From an uncultured Bacilli bacterium (GTDB lineage: Bacteria > Bacillota_I > Bacilli_A > RF39 > UBA660), in assembly GCA_944336815.1 (NCBI GenBank), contig CALVLG010000001.1, positions 1-49,683 of the forward strand: a stretch of 49,683 nt of DNA. Direction: 5' to 3'. The notes beneath the pieces were generated by a model that did no database searches, had not been told where the DNA came from, and was given only the letters and a program-made list of their open reading frames with translations. Every line of letters begins with the position of its first letter. Position 1 is the first letter of the stretch. The position numbers and the translations under genes are program-made. Of the stretch, positions 8,276 to 25,719 are shown piece after piece.

Positions 8276-9283
8276 ATGATAAGAGTTGCAATTAATGGTT
8301 TTGGAAGAATTGGAAGACTGGCTTTTCGGCAAATAATTACAAGTACTGATTTTGATATTGTCGCGATTAATGATTTATCAAAAGCGGAAGATTTAGCTTA
8401 TTTACTTAAATATGATACTAGTCATCGTAAGTTTCATCCGGAAGCTATTTCCAGTGTGGATAATTATTTAGTTATTAACAATGTTAAAAAAATTCCGGTT
8501 TATGCTCAAATGGAAGCCGAGAAGTTACCTTGGAAAGAATTAGATGTTGATTTGGTTTTAGAATGTAGTGGACATTATACAAAGTTAGAGATGGCTTTAA
8601 AACATATTGAGGCTGGCGCTAAAAAAGTGTTGATTTCAGCTCCTGGTAAGGGCGAGATGAAAACGATTGTTTATGGAGTTAATGATAATCTTTTAGATGG
8701 AACAGAAAAAGTTGTTTCAGCGGCTTCTTGTACAACTAATTGTTTAGCTCCAGTTTTAGATGTTTTAGATAAAGAATTTGGCGTTGTTAAAGGTTTTATG
8801 AGTACAATTCATGCCTATACTAATGATCAAGCTACACTTGATATTGCTCATAAAAAAGGGTATGAATCACGAAGAGGAAGAGCAAGCGCTATGAATATAA
8901 TTCCTGCTAGTACTGGGGCTGCAAGTGCCATTGGAAAGGTTTTGCCTAATTTGAATGGGTTATTAGAAGGTGTTGCTTATCGGGTGCCAGTTAGTGATGG
9001 TTCAATGATTGATTTAGCTTTAGAATTGAAAACTAAAGTTACGGCTGAGCAAATTAATGAGACATTTAAAAAATATGCTAATGAAACGTTAAAAGTAACA
9101 AACGATCCAATTGTTTCTAGTGATGTTTTAGGTGAAAAGTGTGGTTCTTTAGTTGATATGCGTTTAACAAGCGTTTTAGATACGGCAAATGGTCAATTAG
9201 TGAAAGTGGTGGCTTGGTATGATAATGAATATGGTTATACAGCCCAAATGCTTCGGACGGCTAAGAAAATGTTTTTGCAATAA
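8276..9283 (+). CDS. gap: Glyceraldehyde-3-phosphate dehydrogenase
   Basis: INGFGRIGRLAFR Rossmann motif, catalytic SCTTNCLAP, and WYDNEYGY at the C-terminus. Confidence 0.95.
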   Translation: MIRVAINGFGRIGRLAFRQIITSTDFDIVAINDLSKAEDLAYLLKYDTSHRKFHPEAISSVDNYLVINNVKKIPVYAQMEAEKLPWKELDVDLVLECSGHYTKLEMALKHIEAGAKKVLISAPGKGEMKTIVYGVNDNLLDGTEKVVSAASCTTNCLAPVLDVLDKEFGVVKGFMSTIHAYTNDQATLDIAHKKGYESRRGRASAMNIIPASTGAASAIGKVLPNLNGLLEGVAYRVPVSDGSMIDLALELKTKVTAEQINETFKKYANETLKVTNDPIVSSDVLGEKCGSLVDMRLTSVLDTANGQLVKVVAWYDNEYGYTAQMLRTAKKMFLQ

Positions 9284-9293
9284 TTGAGGGAAT

Positions 9294-9674
9294 ATGAAAA
9301 AATTAAAAGTTAATATTACTTGTGGAGTAATTGATATTATAACTACTTTTCTTTATTTTTTTTCATTGTTTTTAGTTGGTAATTTTACGGGTGCAATTGG
9401 TACAAGTGATGGAACGGAAGCTTTACAACAATTTTTGCTTATTGTCGCGATTGTTTGTATTGTTATTCATTTTGTTTCGTTTTTTCAATCGCATAATTTT
9501 AAAATGCGTTTACTGGGACCAATTTTTGGCTTGCTTGGCCATGTGATTTATTTGATTTTTGGTGTTTATTTAGCTTGGTTATCAATAATATTTACTTTAC
9601 TTGGGGCAATCTTTTTATTTAAAGATAATCATTATACCGACGAGGTTATTTTACCAAAAGAAATGAGCAAATAA
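9294..9674 (+). CDS. Small multi-pass membrane protein, unknown function
   Basis: 126 aa with about 4 predicted TM helices. It is tightly packed between gap and pgk. I recognise no family. Confidence 0.45.
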   Translation: MKKLKVNITCGVIDIITTFLYFFSLFLVGNFTGAIGTSDGTEALQQFLLIVAIVCIVIHFVSFFQSHNFKMRLLGPIFGLLGHVIYLIFGVYLAWLSIIFTLLGAIFLFKDNHYTDEVILPKEMSK

Positions 9675-9726
9675 TTGCTTATTTCTTTTTTTTTCTGTAT
9701 AATATTTTTGGATAGAAGGGGATACA

Positions 9727-10938
9727 ATGAAAAAGTGTTTACAAAACATGAATGTACGTAATAAGAGGGTTGTTTTGCGGTTAGATTTGAATGTTCCAAT
9801 GCAAAATGGCGTTATTTTAGATGATGCAAAGATTAGGGATTCGTTAGAAACAATTTTTTATTTGTTACAAGAAAATTGTCGCATTGTTATTCTAAGTCAT
9901 TTTGGTAAAATAAAAACACAAAATGATAAGTTGCGTTATTCTTTAGAAAAGGTATCTTTACGTCTTAAAGAACTTGTTGGGCAAGAAGTGTATTTTTCTA
10001 AAGAAAATTTTGGTGAGGCAGTTGTTAAACGAGTTCAAATTATGAAACCTAAAGAAATATTGATGTTAGAAAATACGCGATTTATGGATTTGCCAAATAA
10101 GTTAGAAAGTAAATGTGATGCTCAACTTAGTTTGTTTTGGGCTTCTTTGGGTGATGTTTTTGTTAATGATGCCTTTGCTACTTCCCATCGTAAACATGCT
10201 TCTACTTACGGTATTTCTTTGTATCTTCCTAGTTGTATTGGATTTGCAATGCAAAAAGAAATTTCTTCTTTAGATCGATTAATATTACATCCAATTCATC
10301 CTTTTACGGTTATTATGGGTGGAGCTAAAATAGATGATAAAATTACTTTAATTGAATCTTTACTACCTAAATGTGAACATTTATTATGTGGTGGTGGCAT
10401 AGCCAATACTTGTTTAGAAGCACTCGGTTTTGAAACAGGTCAGTCTATTTCATCAACCGATCCAATTGTTTTAGATAAAGTTAAAAAAATTCTTTTACAG
10501 TATAAAGATAAAATATTACTCCCTTTGGATGCTATTGTTGGTAGTACTTATGATAAAAGTTATGTTAAATATAAACTTATAAATGAAATTGATGAAAATG
10601 ATATGATTTTAGATATTGGGGCAAAAACATTACAACGTTATGAAGAAATTATTCATAATAGTGAGACAGTTTTTTTGAACGGAACAGTGGGACTATATGA
10701 AGACATGCGCTTTGCTAATGGAACAAAAGAATTACTTCGAATCATTACTGAATCTAAAGCTGTGAGTGTTTGTGGTGGTGGTGATGCTTCTTCTAGCGTG
10801 CGAAATTTTGGCTATGGTAATAAGTTTACATATATTTCTTCAGGTGGTGGCGCAACGTTGGAATATATAGCTACGGGCAATTTAGCTGCTATTGAAGCAA
10901 TAAAGGAGGAGATGTACATTGAAACCCTTGATATGTAA
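9727..10938 (+). CDS. pgk: Phosphoglycerate kinase
   Basis: RLDLNVP, VILSHFGK, NDAFATSHRKHAST and the C-terminal ISSGGGATLEY motifs. Confidence 0.95.
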   Translation: MKKCLQNMNVRNKRVVLRLDLNVPMQNGVILDDAKIRDSLETIFYLLQENCRIVILSHFGKIKTQNDKLRYSLEKVSLRLKELVGQEVYFSKENFGEAVVKRVQIMKPKEILMLENTRFMDLPNKLESKCDAQLSLFWASLGDVFVNDAFATSHRKHASTYGISLYLPSCIGFAMQKEISSLDRLILHPIHPFTVIMGGAKIDDKITLIESLLPKCEHLLCGGGIANTCLEALGFETGQSISSTDPIVLDKVKKILLQYKDKILLPLDAIVGSTYDKSYVKYKLINEIDENDMILDIGAKTLQRYEEIIHNSETVFLNGTVGLYEDMRFANGTKELLRIITESKAVSVCGGGDASSSVRNFGYGNKFTYISSGGGATLEYIATGNLAAIEAIKEEMYIETLDM

Positions 10939-11656
10939 TTTAAAAATGGAACATTCTTTACAAGATATTTTACAATATAAAAAAGAACTTGAACATTGTG
11001 TGAATAGTTTTTCTTTAGTTGTGTGTCCACCTTTTTGTTATCTGCCAATTATGCATTCAAAATATTATAAAATTGGGGCTCAAGATGTTTCTTGTTATCG
11101 CAATGGAAGTTTTACTGGTAAAGTTTCGGCTGAGGCCTTAAAAAGTTTAGATGTTTATGGCGTTTTAATTGGTCATAGTGAATTAGCTAATACAATGGAA
11201 GAAAAGTTAAAAAAATTAAGAAGAGCTGTGACAGATGGGTTACACGCATATGTTGTGATTAGTGATACTAAAGAAGATTATGACTATCAATATACTTATG
11301 TGAAATTAATGAGTAAAATTAGGGCTTTTTTATCACGAGTTTTACCAAAAGATTATGCCCATATTACTTTTATATATGAACCGTTTTGGCTCGTTGGTGG
11401 GGCAGAAAGTTTAGATGTTTCGTTTTTAGAAAATTTGTTTTATCAAATTAAAACAGAACTTTCATCCGAATACCGTTATGATTTCCCACTTTTTTATGGT
11501 GGAGGAATTACGAGTGCTAATATCGAAGCGTTATATGCGTCCGATAAAATTGATGGTTTGTTATTAGGAAATTTTTGTAAACACGTTAAAAATGTCGTTA
11601 ATTTTTTGGAAAAAGACGTTAATTCGACAAGTGTAGACAATTCTTTACATGATTAG
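10919..11656 (+). CDS. tpiA: Triosephosphate isomerase (divergent)
   Basis: Catalytic Asn/Lys (ICNLK), GHSE (His/Glu), the YEPFWLVGG (Glu) loop and YGGG are present. The TTG start at 10919 lies 8 nt after AAGGAGGA and overlaps the pgk 3' end by 20 nt. The first ATG would delete the catalytic N/K. Confidence 0.75.
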   Translation: MKPLICNLKMEHSLQDILQYKKELEHCVNSFSLVVCPPFCYLPIMHSKYYKIGAQDVSCYRNGSFTGKVSAEALKSLDVYGVLIGHSELANTMEEKLKKLRRAVTDGLHAYVVISDTKEDYDYQYTYVKLMSKIRAFLSRVLPKDYAHITFIYEPFWLVGGAESLDVSFLENLFYQIKTELSSEYRYDFPLFYGGGITSANIEALYASDKIDGLLLGNFCKHVKNVVNFLEKDVNSTSVDNSLHD

Positions 11657-11682
11657 ACAAAACCTTTTCTGGTAATTTGACA
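11653..11682 (+). promoter_or_regulatory. Two 0A-box-like motifs and a TTGACA -35 upstream of spo0A
   Basis: TTAGACA (11653-11659) and TTTGACA (11676-11682) each differ by 1 nt from the TTCGACA 0A-box complement. TTGACA at 11677-11682 could also serve as a -35. Confidence 0.3.
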
Positions 11683-11741
11683 AAAACTTTGCTATTATTA
11701 AGGTGCGTGTTGTGAGTAGAGGTACTTGAAAGGGAGAAAAA

Positions 11742-12518
11742 ATGAAAACAAAAATTAACGCATTAGTAGTAGATGACAGTATGGAGTTTACGAGTAGTGT
11801 CGAGAAGTATTTTAAAAACAACGCTGATATTCAAATAGCCAATGTTTTACATGATGGTAACGAGGTTGTATCTTATGTAAAAGAGCATCAAAATGAAATT
11901 GATGTTATTCTTATGGACTTGCTTTTACCTGGTAAAGATGGGTTAGCTATTTTGGAAGAATTTAAAAATATTGGAATTGTTAAACATGTTATTATTCTTT
12001 CTAGTTATCGGAAAGAATATGCAATGAAACTTTTAGATAAATTTGATGTTGATTTCTTTATGTTAAAACCATGTGACTTAACTTCTTTAGAAAAAAGAAT
12101 TTTGGAAATAGTACAAGTTAAAGATAAAGAAAATAGTTCAAGTAAAGTGCGATTATCAGTGGAAATGCGTATTACTGAATTATTGCATACTCTTGGGGTA
12201 CCTTCACAAATTAAAGGTTATCAGTATTTACGAGAAGGTATTTTAATGTTATATGAATCTGCTAGTTATATAGGCGGGATTACCAAAGAAGTATATCCTG
12301 AAATAGCTAATCGTTTTAATACGACACCTTCTAGAGTGGAAAGGGCTATTCGTCATGCTATTGAAGTTAGTTGGAATAGAGCTGATTATAATACGATGAA
12401 TAAATTATTTGGACATAGTATTGATTATGATCGCGCAAAGCCTACAAATTCAGAGTTTATGGTGACACTTTCAGATACAATTCGTTTAGAAAATAATGCT
12501 CGTTATGCTTATTTATAA
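11742..12518 (+). CDS. spo0A: Sporulation master regulator Spo0A
   Basis: Receiver domain (ALVVDDS...ILMDLLLPGKDG). The Spo0A-specific C-terminal DNA-binding domain is ITELLHTLGVPSQIKGYQYLREGI...TPSRVERAIRHAIEVSW...KPTNSEFM. Confidence 0.9.
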   Translation: MKTKINALVVDDSMEFTSSVEKYFKNNADIQIANVLHDGNEVVSYVKEHQNEIDVILMDLLLPGKDGLAILEEFKNIGIVKHVIILSSYRKEYAMKLLDKFDVDFFMLKPCDLTSLEKRILEIVQVKDKENSSSKVRLSVEMRITELLHTLGVPSQIKGYQYLREGILMLYESASYIGGITKEVYPEIANRFNTTPSRVERAIRHAIEVSWNRADYNTMNKLFGHSIDYDRAKPTNSEFMVTLSDTIRLENNARYAYL

Positions 12519-12552
12519 AGAAAGTTTAAGAAAATTTTAAACTTTCTTTTTA
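12518..12552 (+). terminator. Rho-independent terminator after spo0A
   Basis: 12-bp stem AAGAAAGTTTAA / TTAAACTTTCTT followed by a T-run. Confidence 0.6.
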
Positions 12553-12554
12553 TA

Positions 12555-12586
12555 ATAAAAAAATCAAAATGTATTTTTACATTTTG
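12555..12586 (-). terminator. Rho-independent terminator after the ToxN/AbiQ gene
   Basis: On the - strand the hairpin CAAAATGTA-AAAA-TACATTTTG is followed by ATTTTTTT, 8 nt past the stop codon. Confidence 0.55.
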
Positions 12587-12593
12587 AATAAGT

Positions 12594-13103
12594 TTAATTG
12601 ATTTTATTATATTCACGGCATTTTTTTTCTAATAATATAAAATTACAACATCTTTTTTTTATTCTTTCATCTAGCGTATTATTTTTATATTTATTATATA
12701 AATTAAAGGCTTTACCTTTTACATTTTTAATGTTTTTATTTAGCCATAATAATTGCGTTTTTAGTAAGTTTTGCCATTTTAATTCGGATGTGTTCTTTGG
12801 GGTGGATTTTAAGTCTAATAATTCATAATTTTTTTGAGTAATTGGTATCATATTATTAAAATTAACAACCCCTAAATTTCCCTTATCAATTTTGATGAAA
12901 TCTAAATTATTTTTCATGTGTATATGTTTAATTTTAGGACTTGATAAAGGTGCAAAATATTCGAAATTATCAACAACAAATAAAATGCCTATAAATGGTC
13001 TCATTTCTTTAGAGCCGGCATTATATGCCACTTTGTTATCAAACTTTCTTAAATAATCACAATAATTTGAATCAACTTTTACAATTTTAAAATTTCTAAT
13101 CAC
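12594..13103 (-). CDS. toxN: Type III toxin-antitoxin system toxin, ToxN/AbiQ-family endoribonuclease
   Basis: 169 aa with a GTG start 6 nt after AGGTGA. The blocks YLRKFDNKV, RPFIGILF...YFAPLSSPK, LGVVNFNNMIPI, LLDL and CNFILLEKKCREY align with the ToxN/AbiQ blocks I recall (YLKEFDDKV, AFIGIVL...YLAPLTSPK, LGLINLKFMIPI, LLDL, CNFSLLEEKYRDF). The cognate repeat array lies upstream. Confidence 0.9.
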   Translation of the reverse strand: MIRNFKIVKVDSNYCDYLRKFDNKVAYNAGSKEMRPFIGILFVVDNFEYFAPLSSPKIKHIHMKNNLDFIKIDKGNLGVVNFNNMIPITQKNYELLDLKSTPKNTSELKWQNLLKTQLLWLNKNIKNVKGKAFNLYNKYKNNTLDERIKKRCCNFILLEKKCREYNKIN

Positions 13104-13140
13104 GATACATCACCTAATGTAATTATAGGCTATTTTTAAT

Positions 13141-13172
13141 CAAAAGAAAAGATTAGAGTATGCTCTCTAATC
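13141..13172 (-). terminator. Intra-operonic terminator between the antitoxin repeats and toxN
   Basis: On the - strand GATTAGAG-AGCATA-CTCTAATC (8-bp stem, + coordinates 13151-13172) is followed by TTTTCTTTT. It occupies the same position as the terminator that sets the toxI:toxN ratio in characterised ToxIN loci. Confidence 0.6.
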
Positions 13173-13285
13173 ACTTTTTTAATTTCCATATAACGGCTGG
13201 AATCACCACTTTTTTAATTTCCATATAACGGCTGGAATCACCGCTTTTTTAATTTCCACTTAGAGCTGGAATCACTCGCTTTTTT
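13169..13285 (-). ncRNA. toxI: Type III antitoxin RNA (ToxI/antiQ-like): 3.3 tandem 35-nt repeats
   Basis: Units read on the - strand:
- AAAAAAGCGAGTGATTCCAGCTCTAAGTGGAAATT (13285-13251)
- AAAAAAGCGGTGATTCCAGCCGTTATATGGAAATT (13250-13216)
- AAAAAAGTGGTGATTCCAGCCGTTATATGGAAATT (13215-13181)
- partial AAAAAAGTGATT (13180-13169)
The period of 35 is not a multiple of 3 and there is no ORF. The array is on the same strand as toxN and immediately upstream of it. Confidence 0.8.
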
Positions 13286-13304
13286 GCTATTAAATAGCAT
13301 TATT

Positions 13305-13340
13305 ATTATATGCAAAAATGCATAACATAATTACTTATGT
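13305..13340 (-). promoter_or_regulatory. Candidate promoter for the toxI-toxN transcript
   Basis: A TATAAT on the - strand (+ coordinates 13305-13310) lies about 19 nt upstream of the first repeat. The -35 is poor (TAATTA region). A T13 tract (13381-13393 on the - strand) could act as an UP element. Confidence 0.3.
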
Positions 13341-13539
13341 GTTAGTAATATATCATAAATATGTTGAAATGTCTAGTTTAAAAAAAAAAAAATAACCACT
13401 GAAAATTGTGACAATAAATGAAAATGGCTAATTTGGGAAGATATTTTTATTAACATCAGTTATATTTTATCGAGTATTTTTTTAAATATCTTTAAATATT
13501 TTGGAATACATGATACTATTTTATTAGGAGGCCTAATAG

Positions 13540-15042
13540 ATGAAAAAAATTTTAACCGTTATTTTAGATGGCTATGGTTGGAGCGATAATACTTTAGGGA
13601 ATGCTGTAAAGATGGCTCCACCAACAAACTTTTTGGAATTGTGGAAAAAATATCCGCACGCTTTATTAGAGGCTAGTGGTGAAGCTGTTGGGTTAGAACA
13701 AAATCAATTTGGAAATAGTGAGGTTGGTCACATGACTATTGGGGCCGGCAGGAAAATTAAACAAAACATTACGCGGATTAAAGAGTTTTTGACGGATAAT
13801 CCTTTAATAAATGAAAACTTTTTAGATATGATAGATTATATTCATGATACAAAGAAACCTTTGCATGTGGTGGGACTTTTAAGTGATGGTAAAGTTCATT
13901 CTAGTTTGGATCATTTTTTAGAACTTGTTGATGTGTTGGCTAAAGAGGAAATAACAAATGTTTTTTTTCATGTGATAAGTGATGGTAGAGATACAGAGAC
14001 GACATCGTTGTATACATATGTTTCAATGTTAGAAAAAAAATTAGTTGAAACAGGAGTAGGTTTTATAGCGTCTATATGTGGTCGTTATTATGCAATGGAT
14101 CGTGATAAAAATTATGATAGAACTAAAAAATACTATGATTTATTAGTTAATGGAATAGGAATTACAGCAGAAAGTATTCCTTTGATGATTCAGAAGTGTT
14201 ACCGAAATAAAATAACAGATGAATTTATGATTCCGATTAAAACAAAAGATTATCGAAGAATTGGTGATGGTGATGCGGTTTTGTGGATGAATTATCGGAT
14301 GGATCGGGCTAAACAAATTATGGCTTCTTTCGGCCAAAATAATTTTGCTGAATTTCCTATTACGGCAATGCCTAATTTGCAATTGTATTCTTTTTTAGAG
14401 ATTGATCATAAAATTAAAACAAAATATTTTTTAGAACAAGAAAATATTCAAAATAGTTTGGGCTTTTATTTATCACAGCTTGGTTTAACACAGGCTAGAA
14501 TAGCCGAGACTGAAAAATATGCTCATGTTACTTTTTTCTTTGATGCGGAAAGTAACGCTTCTTTAGAGGGCTGTCAAAAGTTTTTGATTCCTTCTCCTAA
14601 AGTGGCTACTTATGATTTAAAACCGGAAATGAGCGCTGTTGAAGTGACAAGAAAATGTGTCGATTGCATGGAAAAAGATTATGATTTTATTTTGATTAAT
14701 TATGCCAATCCAGATATGGTTGGACATACGGGTAATTTAGATGCGACAGTGAAGGCTTGTATTACAGTTGATTTGTGTTTGAAACTTTTATACGAAAAAG
14801 CTAAAGAAAATTTTTATACTTTAGTTATTTTGGCTGATCATGGAAATGCTGATCAAATGCTTGATGAGCAAGGACATCCGGTTACGACCCATACAACTAG
14901 TTTAGTTCCCTTTTTAATTACTGATGAAAAAGTTTGTTTAAAAGAACAAGGGGCTTTAACCAATGTGGCGCCAACAATATTAGAATATATGGATATAACT
15001 ATTCCAAAAGAAATGCGTGAGTCAGGTAGTTTACTAAATTAA
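13540..15042 (+). CDS. gpmI: 2,3-bisphosphoglycerate-independent phosphoglycerate mutase
   Basis: LDGYGWS, GNSEVGHMTIGAGR, DGRD, and ADHGNAD near the C-terminus. RBS is AGGAGG. Confidence 0.95.
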   Translation: MKKILTVILDGYGWSDNTLGNAVKMAPPTNFLELWKKYPHALLEASGEAVGLEQNQFGNSEVGHMTIGAGRKIKQNITRIKEFLTDNPLINENFLDMIDYIHDTKKPLHVVGLLSDGKVHSSLDHFLELVDVLAKEEITNVFFHVISDGRDTETTSLYTYVSMLEKKLVETGVGFIASICGRYYAMDRDKNYDRTKKYYDLLVNGIGITAESIPLMIQKCYRNKITDEFMIPIKTKDYRRIGDGDAVLWMNYRMDRAKQIMASFGQNNFAEFPITAMPNLQLYSFLEIDHKIKTKYFLEQENIQNSLGFYLSQLGLTQARIAETEKYAHVTFFFDAESNASLEGCQKFLIPSPKVATYDLKPEMSAVEVTRKCVDCMEKDYDFILINYANPDMVGHTGNLDATVKACITVDLCLKLLYEKAKENFYTLVILADHGNADQMLDEQGHPVTTHTTSLVPFLITDEKVCLKEQGALTNVAPTILEYMDITIPKEMRESGSLLN

Positions 15043-23755: not shown

Positions 23756-23764
23756 ATGAACAGG

Positions 23765-23975
23765 AAATGCGTTGAAAACTATAGTAGTTATAGAAATTCT
23801 TTTTTAGAGAGATGAGGGATGGTGTGACTCATTAGAGATTCTATAATGAAGAAAAGAGTGGGAGCATAAGCGTAATTCTGCGTTAAAGAAAGAAAGTGCA
23901 TGGCAACATGAATTAAGGTGGTACCGCGGATTTAACAGTTATTCGTCCTTTAGAGGAAGATAACTGTTTTTTATT
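23765..23975 (+). promoter_or_regulatory. T-box riboswitch leader (probable Lys specifier) with terminator/antiterminator
   Basis: AGAGA bulge and a distal loop GGATGGTGTGA in stem I. The canonical T-box is AATTAAGGTGGTACCGCG (23912-23929). The terminator is AACAGTTAT...ATAACTGTT plus a T-run (23933-23975). The specifier-loop region TGAAGAAAAGAG contains AAA/AAG followed by a purine. Confidence 0.8.
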
Positions 23976-23989
23976 TTGAAGGAGATAAT

Positions 23990-24256
23990 ATGGAAACACC
24001 TACTTGTAAAATTGCCTGGATTATTAAAACTTCAGCGATTGTGATAATATCAGTTAGTATATTTTTGGCTTTGTTTTTTTGCTTATTTGGCGCTATTTCT
24101 ATTTTAGATGCTATTCTTTTAATTATAGGCGGGATTGTGTCTTTTGCTATTTTATATGGTTATGCACATATTATTCAAGGAGTACAAGATCTTGTTTATT
24201 TAAAAAAATTGGAATATGAAGATGATGAAGAAGACGAAGAGGAGGAAGAAAAATGA
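23990..24256 (+). CDS. Small 2-TM membrane protein with polyacidic C-terminal tail
   Basis: 88 aa with RBS GGAGA. Two hydrophobic helices are followed by YEDDEEDEEEEEK. Its stop overlaps the lysS start (ATGA), implying translational coupling. Confidence 0.5.
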   Translation: METPTCKIAWIIKTSAIVIISVSIFLALFFCLFGAISILDAILLIIGGIVSFAILYGYAHIIQGVQDLVYLKKLEYEDDEEDEEEEEK

Positions 24257-25719
24257 GAGAATTTAGTGAACAAGAATTAGTAAGAAGAGAAAAATTAAAA
24301 AATATTAAAAATCCTTATCCTGAGAGGTTTGAGGTAAATACGGAAATAGCTGAGGCTAAAAATTTAGAAGATGGTACAACTGGTATTCGAGTTGCTGGCC
24401 GAATTGTTTTAATGCGTAAAATGGGTAAGATGAGCTTTTTAACTATTGGAGATATAGGTGGTCGAATTCAGATTTCAGTTAAAATGGATATGATTGGGGA
24501 AGAGGCTTATCAAGATTTCAAACAAAACTATGATTTAGGTGATTTTATTGGTGTTTTAGGTGAAGTCTTTACAACACATACTGGCGAGAAAACAATTCGG
24601 GCGAGTGAAATAACTTTTTTAGGAAAAGCATTGAAACCTTTACCAGAAAAATTTCATGGTTTAGAAGATGCCGAAATGATTTATCGTGAACGTTACGTTG
24701 ACCTTATTATGAATGAAGATGAAAAGAAAAAGTTTTTATTTCGCAGTGCATTTATTAAAGAATTAAGAAATTACTTAAATGATAAAGGCTATGTGGAAAT
24801 TGAAACACCTATTTTAAATAATAAACCAAGTGGGGCTACAGCAAAACCTTTTATTACCCATCATAATGCTTTAGATATTGATTTATATTTAAGAATTGCG
24901 CCAGAAACATATTTAAAAAGAGCTATTGTGGGTGGTTTTACCAAAGTGTTTGAAATTGCTCGTTGTTTTCGAAATGAAGGAATGGATACTACACACTTAC
25001 AAGATTTTACAATGATTGAAGGATATGGAGCTTACTTAAATTATAAAGATAACATGGTTTTCTTACGTGAACTTTTACAAAGTATTATTTTAAAATTATT
25101 TGGCACACTTAGTATTCAAGTGGGCGACAAAATGGTTGATTTAAGTGGCGAATGGCCAAGTGTAAGTTTTAGAGATTTGATTTTAAAATATGCGGCGATT
25201 GATATATATGAGGAAGATACTAAAGAAAAATTATTAGTAAAAATTCGGGAAATGCATATTGAAATTGAATCAGAAGTTCCGTTAGAAAATTTAGGATATG
25301 GAAATTTAGTTGATCAATTATATAAAAAGGTGGCGAGACCTCATTTAGTTAATCCAATCTTTTTAGTAGAACATCCAATTAGTTTATCACCTTTAGCTCG
25401 AGCAAATGATGAAAATCCTAATTTAACTGATCGTTTTCAACTTGTTATTAATGGAGCCGAGATTATTAATGCGTATTCGGAATTAGTTGATCCACAAGAA
25501 CAAGAAAGACGTTTAGAGGAGCAAGCACGCTTAAAAGCTCATGGCGATGAAGAAGCAATGCCAATGGATTATGATTACATTAGTGCAATGGAATATGGTA
25601 TGCCACCTATAAGTGGTTGGGGAATGGGCATAGATCGTTTATTACAACTTTTAACAAATAGTGATAATATTAAGGACGTTGTGATGTTTCCTTTAATGCG
25701 TCCAAAGGATCAAGAGTAG
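24253..25719 (+). CDS. lysS: Lysine--tRNA ligase, class II
   Basis: OB-fold N-domain. Class II motifs are present: FEIARCFRNEG (motif 2) and GWGMGIDRL (motif 3). RYVDLI and ETPIL are also present. Confidence 0.95.
   Translation: MREFSEQELVRREKLKNIKNPYPERFEVNTEIAEAKNLEDGTTGIRVAGRIVLMRKMGKMSFLTIGDIGGRIQISVKMDMIGEEAYQDFKQNYDLGDFIGVLGEVFTTHTGEKTIRASEITFLGKALKPLPEKFHGLEDAEMIYRERYVDLIMNEDEKKKFLFRSAFIKELRNYLNDKGYVEIETPILNNKPSGATAKPFITHHNALDIDLYLRIAPETYLKRAIVGGFTKVFEIARCFRNEGMDTTHLQDFTMIEGYGAYLNYKDNMVFLRELLQSIILKLFGTLSIQVGDKMVDLSGEWPSVSFRDLILKYAAIDIYEEDTKEKLLVKIREMHIEIESEVPLENLGYGNLVDQLYKKVARPHLVNPIFLVEHPISLSPLARANDENPNLTDRFQLVINGAEIINAYSELVDPQEQERRLEEQARLKAHGDEEAMPMDYDYISAMEYGMPPISGWGMGIDRLLQLLTNSDNIKDVVMFPLMRPKDQE

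Follow-up and report, generated by a model that had tools for sequence, protein, structure and literature searches.

A probable ToxIN-family type III toxin–antitoxin cassette in the spo0A–gpmI gap of an uncultured Bacilli bacterium

What is encoded in the 1,021-bp gap that separates spo0A from gpmI in an uncultured Bacilli bacterium (GTDB lineage Bacillota_I; Bacilli_A; RF39; UBA660)? We addressed this question in a stretch of 49,683 nt, positions 1 to 49,683 of the forward strand of contig CALVLG010000001.1 (assembly GCA_944336815.1), hereafter the window. The gap holds a single non-shadow open reading frame (ORF) of at least 40 aa, which we name toxN, and we conclude, with a probability of about 0.88, that the locus is a complete and intact type III toxin–antitoxin (TA) cassette of the ToxIN family, about 0.8 kb long and running on the minus strand from about 13375 to 12557. 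Along that strand follow a promoter-like site, a leader, the toxI repeats, a terminator, a ribosome-binding site (RBS), toxN and a second terminator (Table 1). A preliminary description of this DNA, made from the letters alone, had proposed a ToxIN/AbiQ-like module at this place, and the proposal is supported by the family match of the toxin, by the array and by the covariation among its repeats. All of the sequence features that it listed are present, with corrections to the copy number, the promoter coordinates and the insulation of the cassette. Its placement of the cassette between spo0A and gpmI was confirmed by matches of the flanking genes to TIGR02875 and TIGR01307, and the non-coding region that it saw upstream of the ORF, given as roughly 430 bp, measures 436 bp (13104..13539) and has no ORF of at least 40 aa on either strand.

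A toxin gene preceded by tandem repeats

The 169-aa ORF had been credited with ToxN/AbiQ blocks, and Pfam, PADLOC and matches to solved structures all agree. The Pfam search that had been suggested as a check, against PF13958 (ToxN_toxin), gave a full-length match (E=6.7e-47; 160 bits vs a cutoff of 25; profile positions 2–159 of 159), which was the sole significant Pfam match of the ORF. The AbiQ model of PADLOC matched it as well (E=2.3e-36). No NCBIfam model matched the window ToxN, and the family assignment therefore rests on Pfam and PADLOC. Searched with phmmer against solved structures, the protein matched ToxN_Bt (4ATO, 2.3e-23), ToxN_Pa (2XD0, 4e-17), ToxN_Ec (7D8O, 1e-15) and AbiQ (4GLK, 1.4e-7). 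The same four were the top Foldseek matches in the PDB for an AlphaFold2 model of the protein (pLDDT 89.6, pTM 0.84), with template-modelling (TM) scores of 0.75–0.78 and E-values of 1e-8 to 1e-11; all matches beyond them had E-values of at least 0.018, among them CptN (4RMO, TM 0.57, E=0.02) and MazF (TM about 0.3). The model thus predicts the ToxN fold, a twisted antiparallel beta core with surrounding helices. An assignment to CptIN or TenpIN was rejected, as ToxN_toxin was the only Pfam match, CptN was a distant structural match, and the 35-nt repeat falls below the 40–48 and 39–57 nt ranges found for these families by Blower et al. (2012; PMC3401426).

An alignment of ten sequences places R35, S54, S55 and K57 of the window ToxN opposite the catalytic Lys33, Thr52, Ser53 and Lys55 of ToxN_Pa and ToxN_Ec, whose roles are described in PMC8860590, and by this alignment the catalytic residues are conserved. 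The structural Gly37, which is G39 of the window protein, the Ala-Pro-Leu strand (A51-P52-L53) and Gln117 are likewise kept. Neither substitution at a catalytic position is foreign to the family: Arg is found at ToxN position 33 in clusters 4 and 5 of the E. coli ToxN proteins (PMC8860590), and Ser51 of AbiQ aligns with T52 of ToxN, where Ser and Thr are interchangeable (PMC5086642). Both the RBS and the GTG start that had been described were found. The start position is constant among relatives, while the start codon is GTG, TTG or ATG. Estimates of dN/dS for toxN, rough because dS is saturated, were 0.08–0.12 against the nearest relatives and 0.2–0.34 against a second clade, indicating that the gene is under purifying selection.

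Upstream of toxN, Tandem Repeats Finder (TRF) reported an array at 13174..13285 with a period of 35, 3.2 copies, 91% matches and a score of 173. The preliminary description had counted 3.3 head-to-tail repeats of 35 nt; the period and the tandem arrangement stand, and the copy number is 3.2. Every unit opens with A6, as had been noted. The array exceeds chance, as a 19-nt core of the unit would be expected 0.02 times in shuffles of the window. A single isolated copy of this core with two mismatches, AAAAAGTGTTGATTTCAGC, lies on the plus strand at 8622–8640 within the GAPDH gene and is most likely there by chance.

Table 1. Features of the cassette and its flanking genes. Arrows give the direction of reading on the minus strand; promoter, leader and terminators are predictions. 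L001–L003 are loci of the survey described below.
Feature	Position	Strand	Details
spo0A	11742..12518	+	TIGR02875, 235 bits (cutoff 200)
Terminator after toxN	12587→12557	-	10-bp A/U-rich hairpin 12587→12564, U7 12563→12557
toxN, 169 aa, ToxN/AbiQ-family endoribonuclease	12594..13103	-	GTG start at 13103, stop TAA 12596→12594
RBS AGGTGA	13115→13110	-	6 nt 5′ of GTG; kept in L001–L003
Internal terminator toxI/toxN	13172→13141	-	8-bp hairpin GATTAGAG-AGCATA-CTCTAATC 13172→13151, then TTTTCTTTTG
Partial fourth unit AAAAAAGT	13180→13173	-	8 nt, supplies A-tract
toxI unit 3 AAAAAAGTGGTGATTCCAGCCGTTATATGGAAATT	13215→13181	-	stem 1 UGG(U)/(G)CCG with U·G pair; stem 2 as unit 2
toxI unit 2 AAAAAAGCGGTGATTCCAGCCGTTATATGGAAATT	13250→13216	-	stem 1 CGG(U)/(G)CCG, stem 2 UUCCA/UGGAA
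toxI unit 1 AAAAAAGCGAGTGATTCCAGCTCTAAGTGGAAATT	13285→13251	-	stem 1 GAG(U)/(G)CUC, stem 2 UUCCA/UGGAA
5′ leader, about 55 nt	13286..13340	-	motif TTGCATATAAT 13315→13305; stem-loop GCTAT-TTA-ATAGC 13298→13286
Promoter-like site	13347..13375	-	-35 TAGACA 13375→13370, 17-nt spacer, TATATT 13352→13347, TG 13355→13354; 10/12 + TG
gpmI	13540..15042	+	TIGR01307, 565 bits

A protein search returned 2,419 homologues of ToxN, many of them 65–99% identical and from gut metagenomes, and a genome scan yielded 32 loci, all in metagenome-assembled genomes (MAGs) of uncultured Bacilli or Clostridia. For the arrays we surveyed the 27 loci that have a complete toxin gene and sufficient upstream DNA. An array of 34–36-nt repeats was present in 27/27, 61–109 nt 5′ of the start codon, and a hairpin with a T-run follows every one of these arrays on its 3′ side. 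The copy number is 2.8–3.3 in 26 of them, the exception being L026 with 2.2. A partial terminal unit is kept in all related arrays; its A-tract, a presumed cleavage site, would release the 3′ end of unit 3. Across 62 distinct units, four columns of the A-tract are invariant, which fits the A/AAAA and A/AAA sites at which ToxN_Bt and AbiQ cleave (ToxN_Pa cleaves at AA/AU; PMC5086642).

The units of one array are not copies of each other. In the arrays of L001–L023 they are non-identical in a way that is specific to their position and recurs across genomes: unit 1 is longer by one nucleotide and has a stem 1 of its own, and unit 2 of L001–L003 carries ACCA/UGGU where units 1 and 3 have UCCA/UGGA. 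As the units thus differ by position across genomes, the arrays appear not to be homogenised, unlike the near-identical repeats of pECA1039.

The repeat unit as a candidate ToxI pseudoknot

The fold suggested by the units is that of the template which Blower et al. (2012) derived from the ToxI_Pa crystal structure for 39 ToxI sequences. This template consists of two interleaved stems of 3–4 bp, with 3–4 nt between stems 1a and 2a, 1–2 nt between 2a and 1b, and a variable loop between 1b and 2b, which defines Group I when it is 7 nt or shorter. In unit 2 of the window, stem 1 would be formed by C8-G22, G9-C21, G10-C20 and U11·G19, and stem 2 by U14-A32, U15-A31, C16-G30, C17-G29 and A18-U28. 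The first loop, UGA, then has 3 nt, or 4 if U14 is unpaired; the loop from stem 2a to stem 1b has 1 nt or none (G19, which is able to pair with U11); and the last loop, UUAUA, has 5 nt. By its sequence the window unit thus fits the template as a Group I antitoxin with two interleaved stems. Minimum-free-energy folding of a single unit gives stem 1 alone, because pseudoknots are outside its predictions.

The preliminary description had pointed to the differences among units as natural variants for covariation analysis, and they could indeed be used in this way, with compensatory changes at six of the nine pairs. Units were aligned by sequence anchors and their variable loops were padded with N, which was ignored in counting; five outgroup units, taken from a C. 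botulinum plasmid and from pCV56A of L. lactis, were positioned manually. This alignment replaced a plain MAFFT alignment, in which differences in loop length were pushed to the 3′ end and stem 2b was misaligned. In the 62 distinct units 84.9% of cells are paired, a percentage that leans towards the model because the anchored and padded alignment was built by us and five units were placed by hand; slid registers give 25–47%. At six of the nine pairs both partners change, which concerns 41 cells. The covariation score was 0.261 against 0.111±0.009 in shuffles, and none of 500 shuffles reached it; when the hand-placed outgroups were excluded the score was 0.178 against 0.077±0.008, again reached by none of 300 shuffles.

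The changes are found in both stems. The second pair of stem 2 occurs as U-A, A-U and C-G, and its last pair as A-U, U-A and C-G. In stem 1 of the window, CGG/CCG (unit 2) and UGG/CCG (unit 3) are replaced by GAG/CUC in unit 1, which is thus compensatory relative to the other two; L002 has AAG/CUU. By these comparisons the repeat unit shows the covariation expected of a ToxI-type pseudoknot.

Expression signals, distribution and likely role

The promoter-like site, TAGACA–17 nt–TG-n-TATATT, is the best-scoring promoter match in the region and predicts a transcription start near 13340. In related cassettes TAGACA or TTGATT, a 17-nt spacer and TGnTATATT are found at the same place. The order of promoter, repeats, terminator and toxin that the preliminary description had given is present in the window, with this predicted site as the promoter; the promoter match and half of the leader lie above 13310, the limit that it had set. 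Directly 5′ of the -35, at 13379–13391, there is a homopolymer of 13 nt, A on the plus and T on the toxIN strand, which differs in length and sequence among strains of the same species (A13, A11 and TTAAAAAAAC). This homopolymer might modulate the strength of the promoter.

The leader stem-loop ends precisely at the first A-tract of the window array. A stem of at least 5 bp ending no more than 3 nt from the first A-run was found in 24/27 loci, with at least ten different stem sequences, where shuffles gave a mean of 6.1 and a maximum of 15; as the loci are related, this is suggestive and not to be read as a probability. pCV56A, pECA1039 and pAW63 have no such leader. The stem-loop could stabilise the 5′ end, or take the structural place of a pseudoknot upstream. 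Further upstream, leader hairpin 1 (13326→13299) was set aside, its conservation across clades not being clear. The leader of two clades also includes the TATAAT-containing motif TTGCATATAAT, and upstream of the toxIN repeats of pAW63 a near-identical sequence, CTGCATATAAT, holds the -10 TATAAT of a promoter-like TTGATT–17 nt–TATAAT site. In the window there is no good -35 upstream of the motif TTGCATATAAT, which may act as a second promoter or a binding site, or may be a relic.

The hairpin and U-tract described after the repeats were found as well. This putative internal terminator (G+C-containing hairpin of -9.2 kcal/mol, z=-2.5; U-tract at 13150→13141) ends 37 nt before the toxN start codon, and terminator-like sites are in excess in the region, with four found against 0.3 expected. 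Its stem changes in a compensatory manner in relatives, from AUUAGAG/CUCUAAU to ACUAGAG/CUCUAGU. Leakiness of this terminator is an extrapolation from the ToxIN literature. The hairpin starts 1–3 nt after the last partial unit, and as it and the leader stem-loop abut the array at either end, both outermost A-tracts are flanked by a helix. The hairpin after toxN (-8.9 kcal/mol, z=-5.25) was matched in stability by 0/200 shuffles; the consensus scan missed it because its stem has too few G-C pairs. It abuts a bidirectional spo0A terminator at 12514..12552. Terminators had been claimed on both sides of the cassette: the internal one and the one after toxN exist, while the promoter side faces the upstream region of the divergent gpmI with no terminator.

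The cassette has a G+C content of 24.2% against 31.0% for the window. From 12400 to 13400 there is a local dip in G+C (21.5–25% vs about 31%), and the GC skew is inverted, opposite to that of the surrounding plus-strand genes. toxN is one of just six minus-strand ORFs of at least 150 aa in a window that is otherwise nearly all plus-strand. The region 8276–15042 encodes gap, a 126-aa ORF with no Pfam match, pgk, tpi, spo0A, toxIN and gpmI, and is followed by pcrA. The glycolytic cluster is normally contiguous, and spo0A inside it is an unusual location in comparison with Bacillus and Clostridium. Elsewhere, a T-box leader (RF00230; 108.6 bits vs a gathering score of 93) lies on the plus strand at 23763–23953, upstream of the ORF 24253..25719; it was the only family to pass the Rfam gathering thresholds in the whole window, in which no tRNA gene was found.

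Nucleotide homology to the cassettes of other genomes runs from 13378 to 12564–12604 and then stops; it begins at the promoter site and, with L001, ends at the terminator after toxN. The shared unit, bounded in this way, reaches from promoter to terminator and is about 0.8 kb long. None of the related loci is flanked by spo0A or gpmI, so we rejected the idea of a common insertion site in other species. A functional link to spo0A was rejected too, as other species carry the cassette at other sites and some strains with an identical Spo0A lack it or have a degraded copy. Among its other sites, one is between a SIR2-family gene and an acetyltransferase gene and another between DUF378 and DUF2130; neither has an integrase or transposase in its vicinity, and no mobility gene accompanies the window cassette either.

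Within the species we compared contigs that encode a 100% identical Spo0A (the window, L037 and L039–L044). The cassette is intact in the window, L037, L039 and L040. In L043 toxN has a 2-nt frameshift and exactly one 35-nt repeat has been lost; L041 has also lost one repeat, its toxN has several 1-nt indels, and short stretches are deleted close to the -10 and 5′ of the RBS. In L042 a deletion of about 730 bp extends from the 3′ end of toxN to the -35, and L044 has no cassette, with about 85 nt of different spacer between about 12570 and about 13480. Remnants were also seen in other genomes: L030 and L032 retain promoter, leader, an array of 1.2 units and a toxN truncated after about 30 codons, and L029 and L031, where the array is deleted, retain less (truncation after about 30–50 codons over L029–L032). 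The toxin is broken in every degraded case seen. Gain and decay in this manner would be expected if a TA cassette is dispensable.

By homology with ToxIN_Pa, ToxIN_Bt, ToxIN_Ec and AbiQ, we infer how the window cassette would work, including its transcription, processing, termination ratio, cleavage site, neutralisation, stoichiometry and role in phage defence. One promoter would give a transcript with the leader, three and a bit 35-nt toxI repeats, the terminator and toxN. Most transcripts would end at the hairpin after the repeats, so that antitoxin RNA is in excess, and read-through would yield ToxN. As a sequence-specific endoribonuclease, ToxN would cut the precursor in the A-tracts into three 35-nt monomers, each folding into a small pseudoknot. 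A monomer would bind two ToxN molecules head-to-tail and block their active sites, most likely in a closed 3:3 complex like those of ToxIN_Pa and ToxIN_Bt. Once transcription ceases, for instance upon phage infection, the labile RNA would be lost, and free ToxN would cleave A-rich RNAs and arrest the cell; loss of the labile antitoxin would also make the cassette addictive.

Three full units per transcript are compatible with a heterohexameric 3:3 complex, and it is tempting to suggest that the array delivers exactly one closed complex per transcript. The 5′ stem-loop and the terminator hairpin, as stand-ins for neighbouring pseudoknots, would then enable ToxN to cleave even the outermost sites, so that exactly three monomers are freed, and the non-identical units could avoid mis-pairing between neighbours or hold defined places in the complex. 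We consider this proposal unlikely; if true, it would be a new layer of antitoxin design, undescribed for ToxIN_Pa, ToxIN_Bt and AbiQ. The search of viral_contigs returned no phage-borne copies of the toxin, no pseudo-ToxI mimics and no copies of the toxI unit, and INPHARED gave distant relatives of the toxin and no close ones.

Several observations weigh against the reading of the locus as a complete ToxIN cassette. The outer pairs of the pseudoknot are weak, columns 10-26 being unpaired in 29/62 units and columns 17-38 in 46/62, and in the sister clade the most frequent unit is mismatched (C·A) in stem 1. Base triplexes and an intercalated G, which solved ToxI structures contain, are beyond the reach of sequence. 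Rfam, which has no curated ToxI model, gave no family matching the repeats at E-values up to 10. The promoter and the terminator are consensus matches in a locus read from sequence alone, and promoter-like sites are not enriched in this AT-rich region (11 found vs 10.6 expected), so that support for the promoter comes from its conserved position and not from the scan. The frameshifted and deleted copies in strains of the same species imply that the module is dispensable and that its benefit may be conditional.

The locus could also be a genuine ToxIN whose main role is that of a selfish addiction or stabilisation element, or of a stress-responsive growth regulator, with no useful phage defence, which we hold to be possible, if somewhat unlikely. 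ToxIN_Bt promotes plasmid retention during sporulation (PMC4615649; PMC5086642) and type III systems also act as addiction modules; a minimal 0.8-kb cassette of low G+C content (24% vs 31%), found at different chromosomal sites in different species, outside recognisable defence islands, and undergoing loss or decay in some strains of one species, would suit such an element. On the other hand, chromosomal type III loci and ToxIN members from Gram-negative and Gram-positive hosts have conferred resistance to phages in tests (PMC5086642), toxN is under purifying selection across species, which argues for a benefit to the host, and the addiction and phage-defence roles are not exclusive. It is very unlikely that the window copy is a recently inactivated relic, intact in appearance but with a dead promoter or a non-neutralising array. 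Decay is evident close by, in sister contigs with a 100% identical Spo0A where the cassette is decayed (L041, L042 and L043) or missing (L044) and in the truncated toxN remnants of other genomes with one unit or none, and strains differ in the length of the homopolymer 5′ of the -35. The window ORF, however, is full-length with all catalytic and invariant residues, its 3.2-copy array, promoter-like site, RBS and both predicted terminators are intact, and at least three further contigs (L037, L039 and L040) have the same intact arrangement. Moreover, an intact toxN implies a working toxI, because a dead antitoxin with a live toxin would be lethal.

As for the repeats themselves, they might be an element of another kind that happens to lie beside toxN, such as iterons acting at the level of DNA, a degenerate CRISPR-like array or a coding repeat, and this we regard as extremely improbable. 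What could be said for it is that the terminator hairpin together with the last A-tract gives a weak Rfam match to a CRISPR repeat model (CRISPR-DR17, E=8), whose 16.7 bits fall short of the gathering score of 42, and that the annotation pipeline for pECA1039 called a hypothetical protein across toxI. A CRISPR array was rejected, however, as the units are contiguous, with no spacers between them, and a coding repeat is at odds with the lack of any ORF of at least 40 aa on either strand. The compensatory changes keep a pair of interleaved helices on the strand of toxN, for which sites of DNA binding would have no need, and the array is homologous to arrays upstream of toxins from the family of ToxN and AbiQ, two toxins for which the arrays have been validated by experiment as RNA antitoxins. 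Judged from these sequence comparisons, covariation and homology effectively refute such an element.

The cassette adds a complete type III TA system, and a candidate abortive-infection module, to the annotation of a low-GC uncultured gut Firmicute. Pfam and PADLOC recognise its toxin at once; the toxI RNA gene would escape routine annotation because no Rfam model matches it. The RefSeq coding sequence for a 'hypothetical protein' that spans the toxI array of pECA1039 (L033, 463-684) illustrates how standard pipelines miss or mis-call toxI RNA genes. About 60 distinct ToxI units with compensatory changes occur naturally in the clade, a resource for studies of ToxI–ToxN specificity, and the intact, frameshifted, deleted and absent alleles within one species should be useful for following gain and loss of a TA cassette.

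Comparison with known type III systems

ToxIN_Bt of pAW63 is the best match among the solved structures, with 31% identity and a TM score of 0.78. Its array (34 nt × 3.1 by TRF, unit AAAAAATTGGTGTAACTCTACCGTAGTGAGTACC) has an A-tract opening each unit, like that of the window, and fits the window columns with GGU/ACC, ACUC/GAGU and loops of about 3–4, 2 and 4 nt; the order of predicted promoter, repeats, terminator and toxin is also shared. ToxIN_Bt differs in being plasmid-borne, in its distant protein (about 31% identity), in lacking the leader hairpin region of about 55 nt and in having a terminator that is not adjacent to the last A-tract. As ToxI RNAs are highly toxin-specific (PMC5086642), cross-neutralisation between ToxIN_Bt and the window system is not expected.

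Among the arrays in the literature, ToxI_Pa has 36 nt × 5.5, ToxI_Bt 34 × 2.9 and antiQ, from L. lactis pSRQ900, 35 × 2.8 (PMC5086642), so the likeness to the period of antiQ, given in the preliminary description, is correct. The Lactococcus locus on pCV56A has an array of 36 nt × 3.1 (unit AAAAGCGGTGAATCTCCACCATCAAGTGAGAATCAA, whose 5′ part, AAAAGCGGTGA, is common to the window unit), and the window array is 71% identical to it over 117 nt, with toxins that are 41–43% identical. The pCV56A stem 1, GGUG/CACC, lies one position inward relative to that of the window. The loci of Lactococcus, unlike that of the window, lie on plasmids and have hardly any leader. At the position of T52 in ToxN the window protein has Ser, as AbiQ does (S51); AbiQ (4GLK) is nevertheless the weakest of the four structure matches (26% identity), so the window locus is not an AbiQ orthologue but a member of the same family. 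An array of 38–39 nt × 3.2 is found on the C. botulinum plasmid.

With the founding member, ToxIN_Pa of pECA1039 (2XD0/2XDD), the window cassette shares the logic of the operon and the fold of the toxin (TM 0.77), and the ToxI_Pa unit, AGGTGATTTGCTACCTTTAAGTGCAGCTAGAAATTC, has GGUGAUU, the GAAAUU tail and the pattern of two interleaved stems in common with the window unit. ToxIN_Pa has 5.6 near-identical units of 36 nt where the window has 3.2 non-identical units of 35 nt, and it also differs in its cleavage at AA/AU rather than in a long A-tract, its Gram-negative host and its protein (28–33% identity).

The family at large was catalogued by Blower et al. (2012; NAR 40:6158), who list 67 toxIN loci, 57 of them chromosomal, in Firmicutes, Fusobacteria and Proteobacteria, with a mean repeat of 38.1 nt (31–62), a mean copy number of 2.8 (1.9–5.6) and a mean toxin of 168 aa. 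We compared the window clade, which comes from uncultured gut MAGs, with this catalogue by these family statistics, and the repeat length, copy number, toxin length and chromosomal location of the window locus sit at the centre of the catalogued distribution. Its leader with the motif TTGCATATAAT, its helix-flanked A-tracts and its non-identical units are minor variations on a known design. The locus is unsurprising, given that Pfam and PADLOC recognise its toxin and that similar chromosomal loci of Firmicutes were already catalogued in 2012; it is typical of the toxIN family and leaves the understanding of type III systems unchanged.

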